Source: a virus (lineage: Duplodnaviria > Heunggongvirae > Uroviricota > Caudoviricetes). Taken from it: DNA of 28,806 nt. Below the pieces are notes generated by a model that saw only the letters and a list, made by a program, of their open reading frames with translations, was not told the DNA's origin and did no database searches. Below, in pieces: positions 2,800 through 28,806 of the stretch. The position numbers were made by a program, and so were the translations under genes. Location: IMG/VR virus record IMGVR_UViG_2529292922_000011. One strand, written 5' to 3'. The first letter of the stretch is position 1. Each line of letters opens with the position of its first letter.

Positions 2800-3000
2800 T
2801 CATTTCTCGTTATTTGTCATGCTGGCCGGGCGCAGATGCGTTGCATCTGTTGCCAGCCTTCTCCTGCAGGCTTCAATAACCCACGCTGAAAAGTTACCGG
2901 ACCCTTTATGCTCAAGGGCGATGTTGATCTGTTCAATTATGTGATTGGGGAAACGGATATTGCGGGTTGTGGTTCTGCGGGTCCGGTTTTTCGATGACAT
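2800..3000 (-). CDS. YlcI-like small prophage protein (DUF3950-like)
   Basis: MSSKNRTRRTTTRNIRFPNHIIEQINIALEHKGSGNFSAWVIEACRRRL... resembles the E. coli DLP12 YlcI family found between lysis and terminase genes. I chose the internal Met at 3000 because of the AAAGGAAAT RBS; the track ORF runs to 3060. Confidence 0.55.
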   Translation of the reverse strand: MSSKNRTRRTTTRNIRFPNHIIEQINIALEHKGSGNFSAWVIEACRRRLATDATHLRPASMTNNEK

Positions 3001-3041
3001 ATTTATTTCCTTTACTGATTGCCATATGACGGGGATTTTAC

Positions 3042-3407
3042 ATGGCTGAGCTTCGTACACTCCAGAGCAGAATCAAAACACTGAATACCCGACGGGTGAA
3101 TATTCTGAAGGGGGAGCAGCGTCGTGTCAGTGGCAGTGCACGTGTTTCCCTCAAGCGTCATATCTGGCTGAGGGACGCCGGGCAGTGCTGTATCTGTGGT
3201 CGTGTGGTTGACCTCTGTGACAGTGAACTCGATCACCGAATTGCACTTCAGTTCGGTGGTGGTAATGAGGAGACGAATCTTTGGACGCTCTGTGCCGAAT
3301 GCCATCGACAAAAGTCTGCTCGTGAAGCGGCGAGTGGTATGCCGGACCCGACGCTGCCGGAGGTGTCCGGAGGTAGTGGCAGAGAGGACGACATCATCGG
3401 ACTGTAA
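3042..3407 (+). CDS. HNH endonuclease (terminase-associated)
   Basis: Cys-rich HNH core CCICGR...DLCDSELDHRIALQFGGGNEETNLWTLCAECHRQK; lies immediately upstream of the terminase genes, as HNH proteins do in cos-type HK97-like phages. Confidence 0.85.
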   Translation: MAELRTLQSRIKTLNTRRVNILKGEQRRVSGSARVSLKRHIWLRDAGQCCICGRVVDLCDSELDHRIALQFGGGNEETNLWTLCAECHRQKSAREAASGMPDPTLPEVSGGSGREDDIIGL

Positions 3408-3500
3408 CCCAACCCGGGGGGGGTATCATCCGGCGTAAAAAACGATCGCTTTGGACACCGCGCCCCCTCTCACGCAGAGAAAAAATTCCCGTTTCAGGGC

Positions 3501-3626
3501 AGTTAACATGTTAACTGGCTGCCCGGGCATTTTTGCGGTTTTTATCTTTATTATTCAGTTTGTTGTGCGGAAAAAATGTTAACAGGCTTTTTCAGCAAAT
3601 GTTAACCGGGCAGCAGTTAACATTTG
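3501..3626. repeat. Cluster of ATGTTAAC repeats including a 16-bp perfect palindrome; candidate cos / terminase-binding region
   Basis: AGTTAACATGTTAACT at 3501-3516 (perfect palindrome); ATGTTAAC at 3576-3583 and 3599-3606; inverted copy GTTAACAT at 3616-3623. All lie in the 290-bp noncoding gap between HNH and the small terminase. Confidence 0.4.
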
Positions 3627-3697
3627 CGGCATGAGACGCCGGGAAAAATGGGCTGAACCATACCCGGCTGAGTGCGTTCTGGACCCGGGAGGAGGCT

Positions 3698-4261
3698 GTG
3701 CTGACAACGCAAAAACGAAAATTTGCGCTGGCGCTCATGTCCGGGAAAAACAAAACAGCGTCAGCCATTGCCGCCGGTTATTCGGCGAAGACCGCCAGGG
3801 TTAAAGGCTCGCAGCTGGCAAAAGATCCGGAGGTGCTTGCGTTTATAGCCCGTAAACAATGCGAGACGGTGGAGGTGGATGAGGTTCCTGTTTACCGGCA
3901 GAAAAAATCAGAGCAGGAGGATAAACCCCGTCGCCGTGAGGCGGCTGCAATACCACAGCCGGACGAAAACAATCCGGAGATGCCACCGTCCGCGGTGATG
4001 TCTCCTGGTATTGAATATATGGAGGATGGTCTTCCCGATCCGGTGAAAGCCATGGGGCGGATCCTGGTGGAAAACCTCTGCATTGATCCGAAACTGGCAC
4101 TGGATGCGGCCTGGCGTCTGGCGCAGTTCACGCACCATAAAAAAGGGGATACCGGGAAAAAATCGGCAAAAGGTGATGCCGCGAAAAAAGCGGCTAACCG
4201 TTTTGCGGTGCCACCGCCACCCCGACTGGTGGTGAATAACGATAATGAGGGCAACGGATGA
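3698..4261 (+). CDS. Terminase small subunit
   Basis: GTG start behind a strong GGAGGAGG RBS; N-terminal HTH-like region QKRKFALALMSGKNKTASAIAAGYSAKTARVKGSQLAKDPEV typical of small terminases; directly precedes and overlaps the large subunit. Confidence 0.8.
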   Translation: MLTTQKRKFALALMSGKNKTASAIAAGYSAKTARVKGSQLAKDPEVLAFIARKQCETVEVDEVPVYRQKKSEQEDKPRRREAAAIPQPDENNPEMPPSAVMSPGIEYMEDGLPDPVKAMGRILVENLCIDPKLALDAAWRLAQFTHHKKGDTGKKSAKGDAAKKAANRFAVPPPPRLVVNNDNEGNG

Positions 4262-5919
4262 TACCTGTATGGAGCACAGCCTGCCCGGACTGGGCAGAGC
4301 GCCTGAAAAAGGGGCTGTCGATTATTCCGGATCCGATTTATCCGGACGAGGCCGCACATGCCCTGGCGATTTTTAAACAACTGCGGATTGTGGATGCACC
4401 TGGTAGCCCTACGTTCGGGGAGTCCTGTGCACCGTGGGTGTTTGACCTGGTGGCGGCCCTGTTTGGCTCCTACGATGCGCAGACCGGTGTACGCCATATC
4501 AAGGAAGTTTTTATCCTTATCCCCAAGAAAAACTCGAAGTCCACGCTGGCCGCGGGGATCATGATGACTGCACTGTTACTGAACTGGCGGCAGGCGGCGG
4601 GTTACACGATTCTGGCCCCGACTGTGGAGGTGGCGGCCAACGCCTTCAACCCTGCCCGGGATATGGTACGACGTGACGATGATCTGGATGACCTCTGCCA
4701 GGTACAGACCCATATCCGGACCATCACCCACCGGGTGACAGACACCACCCTGAAGGTGGTGGCAGCCGATCCGAATACGGTGTCCGGTATCAAGTCCGTG
4801 GGTACGCTGATTGATGAGTTGTGGCTGTTTGGCAAGCAGTGCAAGGCGGAGGACATGTTACGTGAAGCCATAGGCGGCCTTGCCTCCCGCCCGGAAGGGT
4901 TTGTGGTGTATACGACCACCCAGTCGAATGAACCGCCCGCCGGGGTGTTCAGACAGAAACTGCAGTACGCCCGGGATGTGCGCGACGGCAAAATTCATGA
5001 TCCGCACTTTCTGCCGGTGATATTTGAACACCCTCCTGAAATGGTGGAAAGCGGGGCTCACCTGCTGATGGAAAACCTCGCCATGGTCAATCCTAATCTC
5101 GGCTATTCAGTGGATGAGGCCTTTCTGTACCGGGAGTACCGTAAAGCCCGGGAAGCCGGTGAAGAGACATTCCGGGGGTTCATGTCAAAACACGCCAATG
5201 TGGAAATTGGTCTTGCCCTGCGCTCTGACCGCTGGGCGGGGGCTGATTTCTGGGAAGAGCAGGGCCGTTGTATCAGCCTGGACGATATCCTGCGTCGTGC
5301 TGATGTGGTGACGGTGGGGATTGACGGCGGAGGGCTGGATGATCTGCTGGGGATGTATGTGATTGGGCGTGACCGGGAGACCCGCGAATGGCTGGGCTGG
5401 GGCCATGCCTGGGCGCATGAAACCGCGGTGGTCCGACGGAAGAGCGAGGCGTCCCGGTTTCAGGATCTTGTTGCCTGTGGAGATATGACCATTGTCCGGC
5501 GTGTCGGGGATGACACGGCGGAAGTGGCGGAATATGTGCGTCGCATTCATGAGGCTGAGTTACTGGACCATATCGGTATTGACCCGTCAGGGGTGGGGCA
5601 GATTCTGGATTCACTGGCGGAAGCCGGGATCCCCGACGGAATTGTGGTGGGGATAAGCCAGGGCTGGAAACTGGGCGGGGCCATTAAAACCACCGAGCGC
5701 AAACTGGCTGAAGGGGTGCTGGTGCATGGTGACCAGCCCCTGATGGCCTGGTGTGTCGGCAATGCCCGGGTGGAGCCTAAAGGTAACGCCATTCTTATCA
5801 CCAAACAGGCCAGTGGACGGGGAAAAATTGACCCGCTGATGGCGCTGTTCAATGCGGTCTCCCTGATGTCCCTTAACCCGGAACCGAAAAAGAAAGAATA
5901 TGCGGTTTTTTTCATATAA
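4258..5919 (+). CDS. Terminase large subunit
   Basis: 553-aa product with ATPase-type N-terminal region and nuclease-type C-terminal region (VVTVGIDGGGLDD...); position between small terminase and head genes. Confidence 0.9.
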   Translation: MIPVWSTACPDWAERLKKGLSIIPDPIYPDEAAHALAIFKQLRIVDAPGSPTFGESCAPWVFDLVAALFGSYDAQTGVRHIKEVFILIPKKNSKSTLAAGIMMTALLLNWRQAAGYTILAPTVEVAANAFNPARDMVRRDDDLDDLCQVQTHIRTITHRVTDTTLKVVAADPNTVSGIKSVGTLIDELWLFGKQCKAEDMLREAIGGLASRPEGFVVYTTTQSNEPPAGVFRQKLQYARDVRDGKIHDPHFLPVIFEHPPEMVESGAHLLMENLAMVNPNLGYSVDEAFLYREYRKAREAGEETFRGFMSKHANVEIGLALRSDRWAGADFWEEQGRCISLDDILRRADVVTVGIDGGGLDDLLGMYVIGRDRETREWLGWGHAWAHETAVVRRKSEASRFQDLVACGDMTIVRRVGDDTAEVAEYVRRIHEAELLDHIGIDPSGVGQILDSLAEAGIPDGIVVGISQGWKLGGAIKTTERKLAEGVLVHGDQPLMAWCVGNARVEPKGNAILITKQASGRGKIDPLMALFNAVSLMSLNPEPKKKEYAVFFI

Positions 5920-5981: not shown

Positions 5982-7919
5982 GTGACTCTTAAACGGGCCT
6001 GTTCCCTGCTGACGGTGAAATCCTTCAGTGAGGATGAACGAGTGATCACCGGGATTGCGTCAACGCCTTCTCCGGATCGGGATGGTGACATCCTGGAGCC
6101 GGAGGGCGCGGAGTTTGGCAGTGCGATCCCGTTTCTCTGGCAGCATGACCATTCCCGCCCGGTGGGGCAGTGTACGGTGCGCCGGGTCAGCGAAGGGCTG
6201 GAAATCACGGCAACACTGGTGAAGCCCGTACCGGATATGCCGTCGCAACTGGCTGCCCGGCTGGATGAGGTCTGGGCGGCCATTAAGACCGGGCTGGTCA
6301 GGGGGCTGTCCGTGGGCTTCCGTCCCCATGAATACACCTTTCTGGACGGAGGCGGACTGCATTTTCTGCGCTGGGAACTGATGGAGGTGTCTGCCGTCAC
6401 CGTGCCCGCGAATGCGGAATGCACCATCCGGACCATTAAATCTTACGACCGCCCGTTTTCTGCCGCGTCCGGCAACCGGAAACCGGTGGTGAAAATCGCA
6501 TCTTCTGCCGGCGCTGCGGCACAGTCAACAACCGTTTTTCATAAGGAAAAGACCATAATGAATATTGGCGAACAGATTAAAAGTTTTGAAAACAAGCGTG
6601 CAGCGCTGGCAGCCTCCCTTGAGGAGGTCATGACCAAAGCCGCAGAGGAAGGGCGCACGCTGGATGTGGAGGAGGAAGAGCATTACGACAACACCGCAGC
6701 GGAAATCCGTCAGGTGGATGCGCACCTGAAGCGCCTGCGTGAACTGGAAGCCGGTAAGGCCGCCACGGCGCAGCCGGTGAAACAGGCCGGTAACGGGAAT
6801 GTGGCCGCGGTGGCTTCTGCGCCGGTGATCCGTGTGGAGCAGAAACTGGATAAGGGGATTGGCTTCGCCCGCTTTGCCAAATCGCTGGCTGCGGCTAAAG
6901 GCGTCCGATCTGAAGCCCTGGAAGTGGCCCGTCGTCAGTATCCGGATGACAGTCGTCTGCATCATGTCCTGAAATCGGCAGTGGGCGCGGGGACCACCAC
7001 GGATCCGCAGTGGGCAGGCAGCCTGTCTGAATATCAGGAATACGCACAGGACTTTATTGATTACCTGCGTCCGCAGACCATTATCGGGCGATTTGGTCAG
7101 GGCGGGATCCCTGCACTTCGTCAGGTGCCGTTCAATATCCGTGTGCACGCCCAGGTGTCCGGCGGTGCTGCCGGCTGGGTGGGTGAGGGTAAGGCAAAAC
7201 CCCTGACGAAGTTTGATTTTGAATCCATCACCTTCAGTCATGCGAAGGTGTCGGCCATTGCGGTACTGACGGAAGAATTGATCCGTTTTTCCAGTCCGGC
7301 TGCTGATGCACTGGTCCGTAATGCGCTGGCGGAAGCGGTGGTGGCGCGTCTGGATACAGACTTTGTGGACCCGAAAAAAGCCGCAGTGGCAGATGTCTCC
7401 CCGGCGTCCATCACCCATGATGTGAAGGGCACGGCATCAACCGGTAACCCGGATGCGGATGCAGAGGCTGCGTTTGGACAGTTTGTGGCAGCAAACCTGC
7501 AGCCCACCGGTGCGGTCTGGCTGATGTCCAGCACCAATGCCCTGGCACTGTCCATGCGTAAAAATGCGCTGGGTCAGAAGGAATACCCGGACATGACCCT
7601 GCTGGGTGGCTCCTTCCAGGGGCTGCCGGTGATTGTCTCCCAGTACGTGGGTGACCAGCTGGTGCTGGTGAATGCCCCGGATATTTATCTGGCGGATGAC
7701 GGAGGCGTGGCAGTGGATATGTCCCGCGAGGCATCACTGGAAATGCAGTCTGAGCCGACCGGCGACAGTACCACGCCGTCCCCGGTGGAGCTGGTTTCCA
7801 TGTTCCAGACAGGCAGCGTGGCCATCCGTGCGGAGCGCTGGATCAACTGGCGTCGTCGCCGTACCGCGGCGGTGGCGGTGATCACCGGAGTGAACTACGG
7901 CAGTGCGTCCGGCGGCTGA
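5982..7919 (+). CDS. Prohead protease - major capsid protein fusion (HK97-type)
   Basis: N-terminal ~170 aa carry prohead-protease motifs (GIASTPSPDRDGDIL, GLSVGF); from residue ~193 a coiled-coil delta domain followed by an HK97-fold capsid domain. One uninterrupted frame of 645 aa; internal AAGGAAAAG RBS plus ATG at 6558. Confidence 0.85.
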   Translation: MTLKRACSLLTVKSFSEDERVITGIASTPSPDRDGDILEPEGAEFGSAIPFLWQHDHSRPVGQCTVRRVSEGLEITATLVKPVPDMPSQLAARLDEVWAAIKTGLVRGLSVGFRPHEYTFLDGGGLHFLRWELMEVSAVTVPANAECTIRTIKSYDRPFSAASGNRKPVVKIASSAGAAAQSTTVFHKEKTIMNIGEQIKSFENKRAALAASLEEVMTKAAEEGRTLDVEEEEHYDNTAAEIRQVDAHLKRLRELEAGKAATAQPVKQAGNGNVAAVASAPVIRVEQKLDKGIGFARFAKSLAAAKGVRSEALEVARRQYPDDSRLHHVLKSAVGAGTTTDPQWAGSLSEYQEYAQDFIDYLRPQTIIGRFGQGGIPALRQVPFNIRVHAQVSGGAAGWVGEGKAKPLTKFDFESITFSHAKVSAIAVLTEELIRFSSPAADALVRNALAEAVVARLDTDFVDPKKAAVADVSPASITHDVKGTASTGNPDADAEAAFGQFVAANLQPTGAVWLMSSTNALALSMRKNALGQKEYPDMTLLGGSFQGLPVIVSQYVGDQLVLVNAPDIYLADDGGVAVDMSREASLEMQSEPTGDSTTPSPVELVSMFQTGSVAIRAERWINWRRRRTAAVAVITGVNYGSASGG

Positions 7920-8130
7920 GTCTGATAAGGAGGACGGGAGGCGTGCGCCTCCCGTAACAGGTTATGGCAAAGATCCGATATCTGCAGGGCACGCATGATG
8001 CCCGGGCCGGGGATATCCGTGATGTGGCACAGCCGTGTGCGGAGGTGCTGGTTCGCCTGGGAAAGGCGGAGTACATCACGGTGCGACGTCCGGCAGGTCA
8101 GAAAAAGAAACGAGATGCGGAGCATGGCGA

Positions 8131-25400: not shown

Positions 25401-26704
25401 ATGACAGTAAAAATTTCTGGCGTGCTTAAAGATGGCACAGGAAAACCAGTACAGAACTGCACCATTGTGCTGAAGGCCAGACGAACCAGCAGCACGGTGG
25501 TGGTGAACACGGTGGCCTCTGAAAATCCGGATGAAGCCGGACGTTACAGCATGGATGTTGAGCATGGTCAGTACAGCGTCACCCTGCTGGTTGAAGGTTT
25601 TCCGCCTTCACATGCCGGGACCATTACCGTCTATGAAGGTTCCAGACCAGGTACGCTGAATGATTTTCTCGGTGCCATGACGGAGGATGATGTCCGACCG
25701 GAGGCACTGCGTCGTTTTGAACTGATGGTGGAAGAAGCGGCGCGTCACGCTGAGGAGGCGAAGAAGAATGCCGGAGAGGCGGAGACGTCCGCGAGGAATG
25801 CCGGCATATCAGCCAGTCAGGCAGAAGAGAGCGCTGCAAATGCTGACACTTCAGCAGGGGATGCATCGGAGTCAGCCCGGCAGGCGGCAGAAAGTGCAGC
25901 CGCTGCAAAGCAGTCAGAGGAGGCGTCCTCGTCCTCGGCCTCTGCGGCTGCTCAAAAAGCCAGTGAGTCATCACAAAGTGCAGCAGATGCTGAGTTGTCA
26001 AAAAAGACGGCAGAAAGTGCAGCCGGTAATGCAGCCAGGGATGCAACGACCGCAACAGAAAAAGCCCGGGAGTCAGCAGAAAGCGCACAGTCAGCGGAAC
26101 AAAGCAGGATAGCGGCGGAAGAAGCCGTAAACCGAATCCCGACCGTGGTGGGGCCTCCCGGGCCAAAGGGGGAACCGGGGCCCGCGGGTCCTCAGGGGCC
26201 GAAGGGAGATAAAGGAGAGCGTGGCGACACCGGCCCGGCAGGGGCAACCGGCGAACGGGGACCGGCAGGTGATGCTGGTCCGGCAGGCCCGCAGGGGCCG
26301 AAAGGTGACAGGGGAGAGCGGGGAGAGACCGGTCTGACGGGAAATGCAGGTCCACAGGGTCCAAAGGGAGATACCGGTGCGGCAGGCCCGGCAGGCCCAC
26401 AGGAGAAACAGGTGCGGCTGGCCCGGTGGGGGCAACCGGACCTCAGGGACCGAAGGGCGACCCGGGGGAGACACAAATCCGTTTTCGTCTGGGGCCGGCG
26501 AGCATTATTGAGACAAACAGCAATGGCTGGTTCCCGGATACAGATGGCGCACTCATCACCGGACTGACCTTTCTTGACCCCAAAGATGCCACACAGGTTC
26601 AGGGGCTGTTTCGGCATTTGCAGGTCAGGTTTGGTGACGGGCCGTGGCAGGATGTTAAGGGGCTGGATGAAGTGGGCAGTGATACAGGCAGAACAGGAGA
26701 ATGA
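25401..26704 (+). pseudogene. Side tail fibre protein (lambda Stf-like N-terminus, collagen-like repeats), interrupted by a 1-nt deletion
   Basis: N-terminus [28 protein letters not shown]...[15 protein letters not shown] matches lambda Stf (recalled); Ser/Ala-rich region; Gly-X-Y collagen repeats from ~26150. The Gly-X-Y periodicity breaks at 26400-26403 and resumes in the -1 frame, which continues to the stop at 26704. Confidence 0.75.
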
Positions 26705-27130: not shown

Positions 27131-27808
27131 ATGTCCATCATTTTTAATGGACACTATCGTATGAAACACCGGACCTGGATCACTGAAGCTTTACGTCTTC
27201 ACTTTGAAGAACATTTACCCCGGGTTGTGGCCGGGCGTCGCCTGGGTGTACCAAAATCAACAGTTTGTAGTATGTTCGTGCGCTTTCGGAGAGCTGGCCT
27301 TTCGTGGCCTTTGCCCGCAGGCATGTCGGAGCAGGAACTTGATGCCTGCCTTTACGGACAATTTTCCACGGTACCAGTCGTACGTCCTGAAAGCACCGTT
27401 ATATCCGAAGCCCCCGTGGTAAAAAAACGTCCTCGGCGGCCCAACTTCCCTTATGAGTTTAAAATCGCCTTAGTGGAGCAGTCACTGCAGCCCGGAGCCT
27501 GTGTGGCGCAGATCGCCCGGGAAAACGGAATCAACGATAACCTGCTCTTCAACTGGCGCCATCAATACCGGAAAGGTGGCCTGCTGCCTTCCGGAAAAAA
27601 TATGCCGGCACTGCTTCCCGTGACGTTAACGCCGGAGCCGGATAATAAAATCCCGGCCCCCGCACAGGAACCAGAGCAGATAAATACACCGTCCGACAGT
27701 CTGTGTTGTGAGCTGGTTCTGCCGGCCGGAACTCTCAGGCTTAAAGGTAAACTGACGCCGGCGTTATTACAGACACTTATCCGCGAAATAAAAGGGAGCA
27801 GCCACTGA
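27131..27808 (+). CDS. IS66-family TnpA-like protein (orf1) with N-terminal extension
   Basis: C-terminal half (KKRPRRPNFPYEFKIALVEQSLQPGACVAQIARENGINDNLLFNWRHQYRKG ... LPAGTLRLKG) fits IS66 orf1; real start may be an internal Met; stop overlaps the tnpB start. Confidence 0.55.
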   Translation: MSIIFNGHYRMKHRTWITEALRLHFEEHLPRVVAGRRLGVPKSTVCSMFVRFRRAGLSWPLPAGMSEQELDACLYGQFSTVPVVRPESTVISEAPVVKKRPRRPNFPYEFKIALVEQSLQPGACVAQIARENGINDNLLFNWRHQYRKGGLLPSGKNMPALLPVTLTPEPDNKIPAPAQEPEQINTPSDSLCCELVLPAGTLRLKGKLTPALLQTLIREIKGSSH

Positions 27809-28155
27809 TGATATCTCTCCCTGCAGGTTCGCGTATCTGGCTGGTTGCAGGTATCACCGATATGCGAAATGGCTTTAACGGCCTGGCATCAAAAGTTCAG
27901 AACGTCCTGAAGGATGACCCGTTCTCCGGACACCTGTTCATCTTCCGCGGACGCCGGGGTGACCAGATAAAAGTGTTGTGGGCTGACAGTGACGGACTGT
28001 GCCTCTTCACCAAACGCCTGGAGCGGGGCCGCTTCGTCTGGCCAGTCACCCGTGACGGCAAGGTGCACCTTACTCCGGCTCAGTTATCCATGCTTCTTGA
28101 AGGTATCAACTGGAAGCACCCGAAACGAACGGAACGCGCTGGAATCCGCATATAA
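27808..28155 (+). CDS. IS66-family accessory protein TnpB (orf2)
   Basis: MISLPAGSRIWLVAGITDMRNGFNGLASKVQNVLKDDPFSGHLFIFRGRRGDQIKVLWADSDGLCLFTKRLERGRFVWP is the canonical IS66 orf2 sequence pattern. Confidence 0.85.
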   Translation: MISLPAGSRIWLVAGITDMRNGFNGLASKVQNVLKDDPFSGHLFIFRGRRGDQIKVLWADSDGLCLFTKRLERGRFVWPVTRDGKVHLTPAQLSMLLEGINWKHPKRTERAGIRI

Positions 28156-28174
28156 CCCGTTGTAAAGTGAGGAT

Positions 28175-28600
28175 ATGGACACCTCACTTGCTCGTGAGAA
28201 CGCCCGCCTGCGGGCACTGTTGCAGACGCAACAGGACACCATCCGCCAGATGGCTGAATACAACCGCCTGCTCTCACAGCGGGTGGCGGCTTATGCTTCC
28301 GAAATCAACCGGCTGAAGGCGCTGGTTGCGAAACTGCAACGTATGCAGTTCGGTAAAAGCTCAGAAAAACTTCGTGCAAAAACCGAACGGCAGATACAGG
28401 AAGCACAGGAGCGAATCAGCGCACTTCAGGAAGAAATGGCGGAAACGCTGGGTGAGCAATATGACCCGGTACTGCCATCCGCCCTGCGCCAGTCTTCAGC
28501 CCGTAAACCGTTACCGGCCTCACTTCCCCGTGAAACCCGGGTTATCCGGCCGGAAGAGGAATGCTGTCCTGCCTGTGGTGGTGAACTCAGTTCTCTGGGA
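28175..28600 (+). pseudogene. IS66-family transposase TnpC, N-terminal fragment only
   Basis: Leucine-zipper N-terminus and MQFGKSSEKL motif, then zinc-finger CPACGGEL; family similarity ends right after LSSLG where foreign sequence begins; most of the catalytic domain is missing. Confidence 0.75.

Positions 28601-28806
<206 letters not shown>

Follow-up and report, generated by a model that had tools for sequence, protein, structure and literature searches.

Two natural packaging-specificity alleles are known from phages lambda and 21, in which the repeats and the recognition helix of the small terminase (TerS) change together and are exchanged as a cassette, and the pac sites of SPP1 and SF6 combine pacL and pacR boxes, intrinsically bent DNA and a ring of helix-turn-helix (HTH) domains with headful packaging. 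In HK97 (HNH gp74, TerS gp1 and the large terminase, TerL, gp2), the nick is followed by a TerS A-tract site at +15..+29 and by the terS start at +50 (Kala 2014; Chechik 2024, PMC11331095). Here we analyzed a 28,806-bp stretch of Caudoviricetes DNA (IMG/VR record IMGVR_UViG_2529292922_000011; hereafter the window), in which an earlier note had proposed a cos site between an HNH endonuclease gene and terS. Direct reading of the sequence put the end of the HNH open reading frame (ORF) at 3407 and the GTG start of terS at 3698, and the 290-bp noncoding gap that the note had described (3408-3697) is indeed present, with the genes confirmed by Pfam. The gap is probably the cos site of an HK97-style 3'-cos/HNH system, consisting of a core that would be cut by TerL and HNH and of a cosB-like array that would be bound by the HTH domains of TerS. 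As such it is not a new kind of system: it is a lambda-cosB-like arrangement on an HK97-type 3'-cos/HNH chassis, and the cohesive-end sequence of this phage group is already published.

The position of the ends was deduced from relatives. Zhang et al. (2021, PMC7946995) induced the Stx1 phage Lys8385Vzw and reported, from PhageTerm, that it packages by cos, with 3' cohesive ends whose sequence, CGCCCCCCCT, lies at the end of its genome. This phage carries the same packaging module, with a spacer 95-97% identical to that of the window, and its record (MT225100), which is ordered on the PhageTerm termini, ends with ...GGACACCGCCCCCCCT and begins with CTCACGCAGAGAAAAAATTCCCGTTTCAGGGCAGTTAACATGTTAACTGG. 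At the aligned terminus the window reads GGACACCGCGCCCCCT followed by CTCACGCAGAG..., which, together with the ends of the record, puts the terminus between 3468 and 3469 and the 10-nt cohesive sequence at 3459-3468; this sequence, CGCGCCCCCT, differs from that of Lys8385Vzw at 1 of 10 positions. The predicted nicks are after 3468 on the top strand and before 3459 on the bottom strand. Two further phages are very distant from the window phage, yet have a TerS of the same family. The Acinetobacter phage fEg-Aba01 has 10-nt 3' cohesive ends, CGCCCCCCAT, established by PhageTerm and by a heat/cool restriction-fragment gel assay (PMC7354433), and its record begins with CGCACGCACAAAAAAAATTCCC, the homologue of window position 3469 onward. 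The record of Burkholderia phage Bcep176, in terS orientation, begins with CGCACGTTCC and continues with CTCACGCGCAGAAAATTTTCCC, its start being the homologue of 3459; a literature search found no paper confirming that these record ends were mapped, and Bcep176 was counted as consistent only. These data supported virion ends inside the gap, about 33 nt upstream of the palindrome described below, as mapped in the relatives and predicted for the window prophage. The earlier note had placed the ends in this interval, and the mapped ends of Lys8385Vzw and fEg-Aba01 agree with it, with the cut upstream of the repeats and not within them. Since cos sits in mid-prophage, between the lysis and the head genes, the virion map is circularly permuted relative to that of the prophage, as the note had also anticipated. 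As to other candidate guides, phi330 and a 1.5-kb ECO95 fragment were uninformative on the ends, the start of the vB_PR2a record was rejected as a terminus because it is arbitrary, and a Serratia phage paper and an LLS/mEp213 paper were set aside because they concern other cos types.

Downstream of the predicted nick, the motif ATGTTAAC occurs five times in the window, at 3502(-), 3508(+), 3576(+), 3599(+) and 3616(-), all inside 3502-3623 (a span of 122 bp), while 0.55 copies would be expected by chance for the whole window and 0 of 100 dinucleotide-preserving shuffles reached five. The 16-bp perfect palindrome previously noted, AGTTAACATGTTAACT at 3501-3516, really extends to 18 bp (CAGTTAACATGTTAACTG) and is built of the first two overlapping copies, and the three additional copies said to lie in both orientations within 125 bp are those at 3576(+), 3599(+) and 3616(-). 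The core GTTAAC is self-palindromic, so the orientation of a copy is set solely by the flanking AT. As an HpaI site, GTTAAC occurs nine times in the whole window versus 3.7 expected, five of the nine being the putative cosB sites, and digestion with HpaI or HincII would break cos into small diagnostic fragments. The segment between the first dyad and the third copy carries T/A tracts at 3530, 3539, 3547, 3559 and 3571 and is a candidate bend; the match in it to the integration host factor (IHF) consensus has one mismatch, and such matches are common (36 seen, about 25 expected), which makes it a weak candidate. The coordinates of all features are collected in Table 1.

Table 1. Features of the putative cos site and its flanking genes in the window; positions with a plus sign are counted from the predicted top-strand nick, 3469 being +1
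Feature	Position	Strand	Basis
Left arm of cos core: G8 run (3416-3423), TATCATCCGG, GATCGC, GGACAC	3416..3458	+	Conserved across TerS family and satellite
cosN, predicted 10-nt 3' cohesive end CGCGCCCCCT	3459..3468	+	Homology to CGCCCCCCCT (Lys8385Vzw) and CGCCCCCCAT (fEg-Aba01)
Right arm of cos core, CTCACGCAGAGAAAAAATTCCC, A6 tract included	3469..3490, +1..+22	+	Invariant across TerS specificity types
Putative cosB dyad 1, CAGTTAACATGTTAACTG, two ATGTTAAC half-sites	3500..3517, +32..+49	.	Positional homologue of terS start codon in most of TerS family
190-nt block with sites 3-5 and present ribosome-binding site	3516..3705	+	Alignment with SP-016; missing in short-spacer majority
T-tract-rich spacer, candidate bend between TerS sites, with IHF-like ATTCAGTTTGTTG at 3553-3565	3528..3572	+	
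Putative cosB site 3, AAATGTTAACAGG	3574..3586	+	Motif occurrence, conservation
Putative cosB dyad 2, GCAAATGTTAAC-CGGGCAGCA-GTTAACATTTGC, sites 4 and 5 inverted	3595..3627	.	12-nt arms, 100% complementary, N9 between
HNH endonuclease gene, presumed accessory nuclease for cos cleavage	3042..3407	+	Pfam PF01844, E=2.7e-7
Small terminase gene, TerS, 187 aa	3698..4261	+	Pfam Terminase_2
terS codons 1-55, four-helix DNA-binding domain, HTH (a2 19-25, a3 33-41), type-A allele AIAAGYSAKTARVKGS	3698..3862	+	
Large terminase gene, TerL, 553 aa, HK97-related	4258..5919	+	Pfam TerL_ATPase and TerL_nuclease

Comparison of the long-spacer E. coli relatives, all of which keep the architecture of the array, revealed two repeat types. 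In type A (the window, 78 IMG/VR loci, L166, L173 and L175), four to five copies of ATGTTAAC and no ATGTTTAY stand beside a TerS with the HTH AIAAGYSxKTARVKGS (L166 has six GTTAAC cores), and in type B (L168, L169, L172 and L174, with L167 and L176 partial), five copies of ATGTTTAY and no ATGTTAAC stand beside the HTH AIEAGYSxKSARCKGS. The type-B copies lie at the same positions as those of type A, including a palindrome, TATAAACATGTTTATA, in place of dyad 1, and among the loci with a complete spacer the pairing of repeat type and HTH allele has no exceptions. In type A, 95% of the motif columns are invariant versus 47% of the other spacer columns (Fisher p=2e-8), and in type B the values are 97% versus 76% (Fisher p=1.3e-3). 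Two further elements are shared by both spacer types, GGCAGCR between sites 4 and 5 and the invariant ATTCA....GTT of the IHF-like match. One near-identical phage pair spans the types and is a natural module swap: between L172 (type B) and L173 (type A), identity is 93-100% in HNH, across the cos core, in the body of TerS and in TerL, but drops to 40-83% over a segment that opens with the first dyad base (+32) and closes at about +347 (terS codon ~41, where a3 ends). As other readers of the repeats, HNH was ruled out, since none of its residues partitions with the motif type, and so was TerL, whose 5' region is 92-96% identical across the types without such a partition. A scan of IMG/VR by TerS alone gave only relatives of at least 94% identity and was of no use for covariation. 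Divergent TerS proteins beside the same core pair with other repeats: two copies of AAAAGTTACAC in an E. coli satellite resembling a phage-inducible chromosomal island (PICI) (L170/L182), three copies of AAGTTAAA in fEg-Aba01, which keeps the core, and GTTAACCC repeats beside the core in a Pantoea prophage. Judged by this covariation with the HTH, the repeats are most likely TerS docking sites, which lends strong support to the earlier proposal that they fit small-terminase binding sites.

The TerS of the window matches PF03592 (Terminase_2) over residues 2-57 with 36.0 bits versus a gathering cutoff of 26.1. In its AlphaFold2 model, residues 1-50 have a predicted local distance difference test (pLDDT) score of 93-97, and the best Foldseek match in the PDB is the DNA-binding domain of SF6 TerS (4zc3; TM 0.84, root mean square deviation 1.6 Å, 30% identity), which a profile search likewise matches. 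The type-specific substitutions K19R, A25E, A30E, T32S and V35C would map, in the model, to the ends of a2, to the turn and to the first helical turn of a3, and nuclear magnetic resonance implicates that HTH surface in the DNA contact of SF6 (PMC4737164). No BLASTP similarity was found between this TerS and HK97 gp1, which is also without a Terminase_2 match, whereas TerL shares 23% identity with HK97 gp2 over 489 residues (BLASTP, E=2e-11). The HNH adjacency and the TerL homology are HK97-like, and the small terminase is of the SF6/SPP1 type (Terminase_2) and no homologue of gp1. As a separate observation, the linker that follows the DNA-binding domain (residues 58-101, window 3869-4000) is a stretch of predicted disorder (pLDDT <50) and hypervariable in the E. 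coli relatives, with unrelated versions shuffled onto both HTH types; an E. albertii protein (P0001) carries a 15-residue tandem duplication in it.

Around the predicted cut, conservation reaches far beyond the two repeat types. About 125 nt are common to Salmonella phage FSL SP-016, whose TerS is 48% identical, and to 22 loci of different Enterobacterales genera, reading CCGGGGGGGGTA...GATCGC..GGACACCGCGCCCCCT to the left of the terminus and CTCACGCACAGAAAAAATTCCCCTCTGGAGGGTGTAAAC ATGTTAACAGCG to its right. The left arm of this core is kept in SP-016, in at least 20 Enterobacterales loci and in satellite L170, with many invariant columns in the alignment, and is possibly a cosQ-like or nuclease-positioning element. 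The right arm is conserved from E. coli to the Burkholderia and Acinetobacter phages and in the satellite, at roughly the position of the HK97 TerS site (+15..+29). Since the core is unchanged with TerS specificity and retained by satellites, we infer that it is read by the shared TerL/HNH complex or has a structural role. It could also be argued that the gap is a cos site in which TerS is set mainly by the A-tract box at 3475-3490 (+7..+22), as in HK97, with ATGTTAAC being accessory or serving another purpose, such as enhanced initiation, competitor exclusion or terS regulation: the minimal TerS site of HK97 contains an A-tract, conservation of CAGAGAAAAAATTCCC extends from E. coli as far as Burkholderia and Acinetobacter, and most relatives have the dyad only, over the terS start, without further copies. 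We consider this unlikely, as the HK97 TerS is unrelated in sequence and has no such HTH domain, and the box stays constant when the HTH allele changes and also in the satellite with its own divergent TerS. Such constancy would be expected less of a specificity determinant than of a site that the shared TerL/HNH reads or that has a structural role. The repeats, in contrast, do change with the HTH.

In most relatives, 40 nt separate the nick from the terS start (229 nt in the window lineage), and the opening codons of terS, ATG-TTA-ACA (Met-Leu-Thr), serve as right half to the near-palindrome GT(A/T)AAC-ATG-TTAAC. The window palindrome lies at the identical 40-nt distance from the nick, and the same is true of SP-016 and most of the 22 genomic loci; the dyad over the terS start (GTAAAC ATG TTA ACA) is seen at L085:1495-1510, around 1495-1510 in L086-L107, and in L179 (Bcep176). 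In the window, the former Shine-Dalgarno sequence has decayed from GGAGGG to CAGGGC, and the actual start lies 190 nt further downstream, reads GTG-CTG-ACA and is preceded by a ribosome-binding site, GGGAGGAGG, at 3687-3695. Across the TerS family only the palindrome is conserved, and the other three copies are confined to the lineage-specific 190-nt block. Codon usage points in the same direction. Leu2 is TTA in 20 of the 22 loci with Leu at codon 2, against a TTA share of 3.9% (47 of 1,201) among the other Leu codons of terS and terL in these loci; in the high-GC Bcep176 it is TTA though none of the 22 other Leu codons is, and lineages with the motif upstream of terS use the common CTG. The retention of the rare TTA indicated that the (G)TTAAC dyad, which is separated from the start codon in the window lineage, is under selection as DNA, and suggests a DNA-level constraint on terS codons 1-3. 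TerS binding is possibly coupled to terS expression through the start-codon dyad. A different placement was observed in a Morganella morganii prophage (L104:1330-1400), where a GTTAAC/GTTAAT cluster, GTTAACcgGTTAATtgccgGGTTAATtgcatggttgcgctcatGTTAAC, lies left of the G-run, right after the HNH stop codon; putative TerS sites may thus lie on either side of cosN depending on the lineage.

Because the dyad covers the terS start codon and the ribosome-binding site in most relatives, a natural place for expression control, the repeats might instead be operators for another protein (a phage late regulator, IHF or Fis) or part of a structured late-mRNA leader controlling terS translation; the IHF-like match would fit the former, and the RNA of 3469-3700 folds better than shuffles (z=-3.5). 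This explanation seems quite improbable. A joint A-to-T change of all five copies that is linked to the HTH allele cannot be put down to a host factor, the swapped cassette holds no other DNA-binding gene, and the 40-nt distance between nick and dyad is kept even where no start codon coincides with the dyad any longer. The leader structure was rejected, since it is the inverted DNA sites themselves that lend it stability, and L175, L166 and type B lack the additional pairing of 3516-3526 with 3606-3615. Rfam gave no match at E<=1 on 3300-3800, and a promoter/terminator scan of 2900-4300 gave none on the plus strand in the gap; a single minus-strand promoter-like match was discarded, being made of the motif copies themselves.

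The boundaries of the 190-nt block, ATGTTAAC at 3508 and GTGCTGAC at 3698, and a weak similarity of 3472-3484 to 3636-3648 raise the question of whether the repeats are a nonfunctional relic of terS-start duplications, and the classical origin of Terminase_2 TerS proteins from pac phages (SPP1, SF6) raises that of headful packaging with the gap not an end site. Either would be very surprising here. Across about 20% divergence, conservation is far higher in the motif columns than in the surrounding spacer, the copies all change in concert from one type to the other, and 10-nt 3' cohesive ends have been mapped to the homologous position in two relatives with a TerS of this family. An origin of the block by duplication of the nick-to-start segment was likewise rejected, the local alignments not being significant (p=0.09 and 0.07); the block may reflect an insertion in the window lineage or a deletion in the others.

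Under the interpretation as a cos site with a TerS-bound array, the gap would work in two layers. The first would be the core at 3416-3490, from the G-run to the A-tract around the cohesive CGCGCCCCCT, where TerL with the adjacent HNH nuclease would make staggered nicks leaving 10-nt 3' overhangs, so that the mature left end would begin at 3469 and run into terS. The second would be the array after the nick, in which the palindrome (+32..+49) is followed by a T-rich, probably bent spacer, then by a lone site and then by another inverted pair; the ATGTT(A)AC half-sites of the array would be bound by HTH domains on an oligomeric, SF6-type TerS. This binding would mark the DNA as viral and position TerL/HNH on the core; the array (3500-3627) would thereby be the specificity element and the core would be independent of TerS specificity.

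Several points weigh against this interpretation. The ends were mapped in relatives only, the window cohesive sequence being one base off that of Lys8385Vzw, and insertion sequence (IS) elements by the tail-fibre gene raise doubt over virion production by the window prophage. The spacer directly adjoins the first 40 codons of terS, so that their co-inheritance could be plain linkage; type A and B spacers differ throughout (about 77% identity), beyond the motif, and the independent lineages are few, about three to four for type A and two to three for type B. Sites 3-5 may be accessory, since SP-016 and most relatives do with only the dyad, and the true primary site could be the conserved A-tract, which lies at a position similar to that of the TerS site in HK97. 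Finally, the SF6 prototype HTH binds DNA weakly in vitro and with little sequence specificity (PMC4737164), and recognition of an 8-mer is therefore not guaranteed for this fold.

Compared with lambda cos (cosQ-cosN-cosB, R3-I1-R2-R1), the gap has a similar order: the nick, then putative TerS repeats in mixed orientation (five conserved copies at +34..+155 between the nick and terS, which covary with the TerS HTH), an A/T-rich, possibly IHF-bent spacer, and then terS. As in lambda and 21, the E. coli relatives have two alleles in which repeat and HTH change together, apparently as a cassette. Unlike lambda, the relatives have 10-nt 3' overhangs and not 12-nt 5' ones, an HNH accessory nuclease is present, the TerS has an SF6-type four-helix HTH (Terminase_2) in place of the Nu1 winged HTH, and the IHF site is only a weak candidate. 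The likeness to HK97 includes the HNH gene directly upstream of cos, the 10-nt 3' overhang (mapped in relatives, predicted for the window), a putative TerS site just after the nick, a terS that in the layout typical of the family starts 40-50 nt past the nick, the homologous TerL, and the HK97-fold capsid and portal. In contrast, the one TerS site of HK97 is a 15-bp A-tract element that a substructure of the ring channel reads, its TerS is nonhomologous and its terS lies close to the nick, while the window has five putative HTH-type half-sites over 125 bp and a terS 229 nt away. With SPP1 and SF6 G1P the window TerS shares the family and the fold of the DNA-binding domain, and in both cases repeated short boxes flank bent, or probably bent, A/T-tract DNA; packaging there is headful from pac, whereas relatives of the window TerS have defined cohesive ends, and SF6 shows little sequence specificity, whereas the window 8-mer is strongly conserved and covaries with the HTH. 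In the text searched, the Lys8385Vzw paper (PMC7946995) reports only the 10-nt overhang and describes neither the repeats nor the TerS link nor the core architecture. In the literature searched, no description was found of the repeat array, the TerS-HTH link, the two specificity cassettes or the ancestral dyad embedded in the start codon.

The core also occurs outside these prophages. In an E. coli integrative island (L182:3446-11944; also L170 and L171 around 1380-1500), an integrase, small ORFs and an AAA_25 replicase are followed by a cos core nearly identical to that of the phage, G-run..GGACACCGCCCCCCGT before and CTCATTCGTAGAAAA after the terminus. The island has its own Terminase_2 TerS (P0064; 46% identical, present in 244 blocks of the contig index) and a capsid-family gene without an adjacent TerL, and two AAAAGTTACAC copies replace ATGTTAAC. 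It looks like a PICI-type satellite parasitising phages with this TerL/HNH/cosN.

We tentatively propose, as a possibility that we hold with some doubt, that the segment from the palindrome to the HTH (+32 to terS codon ~41) is a portable packaging-specificity cassette. E. coli prophages would carry it, on a shared TerL/HNH/cosN chassis, in at least two versions incompatible with each other, one joining ATGTTAAC to KTARV and the other ATGTTTAY to KSARC. PICI-like satellites would use this chassis with their own TerS and repeats, and the ancestral operator in the terS start codon would fix the rare TTA and may couple packaging to terS expression. If so, co-resident prophages (up to seven cos copies per genome) and satellites would compete, or avoid cross-packaging, by means of the cassette. 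In practice, the cut site and the probable TerS sites give the true virion map of these prophages, predict which co-resident prophages or satellites each terminase can package, and supply a minimal cos fragment for transduction or cosmid-style tools. Types A and B also provide a natural pair for dissecting specific DNA reading by an SF6-type HTH ring, the SF6 prototype itself being little specific in vitro.

The surrounding genes place the gap in the packaging module of long-tailed prophages of Shiga toxin (Stx)-converting and enteropathogenic E. coli (EPEC), the window being 100% identical to a prophage of EPEC E2348/69. In that genome the RefSeq label of the HNH gene is 'HNH endonuclease' and the gap itself carries no RefSeq annotation. 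By Pfam, lysozyme and Rz lie upstream, followed by HNH, TerS, TerL, a prohead protease-capsid fusion (5982-7919) and the portal (8035-9495), with HK97/lambda-type tail genes after the portal; the layout with HNH adjoining terminase and cos recurs in relatives. The fusion is a single 645-aa ORF that joins a Peptidase_S78 (prohead serine protease) domain to an HK97-fold major capsid domain, and the portal gene is downstream, not upstream, of it. The spacer is 95-99.7% identical across 94 phage records, namely those of BP-4795, 2851, 1717 and YYZ-2008, which are long-tailed Stx-converting phages, and of many Stx1a/Stx2c prophages. Among 5,426 complete E. coli genomes, 1,272 carry the type-A spacer, some of them in as many as seven copies, and just 11 carry the type-B spacer.

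At the other end of the window, two transposase-type ORFs, HTH_Tnp_1 (27131-27808) and one with an IS66 leucine-zipper domain (28175-28660), within 27131-28660, lie directly 3' of the side tail-fibre gene (25401-26567), and the tail-fibre region was probably disrupted by IS insertion; with IS elements beside this gene, the prophage copy may be defective and may not yield infectious particles. In several database records (MT225100, L003:185-793; ON470625; ON470626; JQ347801), coding sequences are stretched into the noncoding cos spacer: one starts the 'terminase' 45 nt upstream at a non-standard codon, and others run a 'putative DNase' or 'HNH' across the gap. Given the conserved start MLTTQKRKFA with its own Shine-Dalgarno sequence, these extensions are over-calls.

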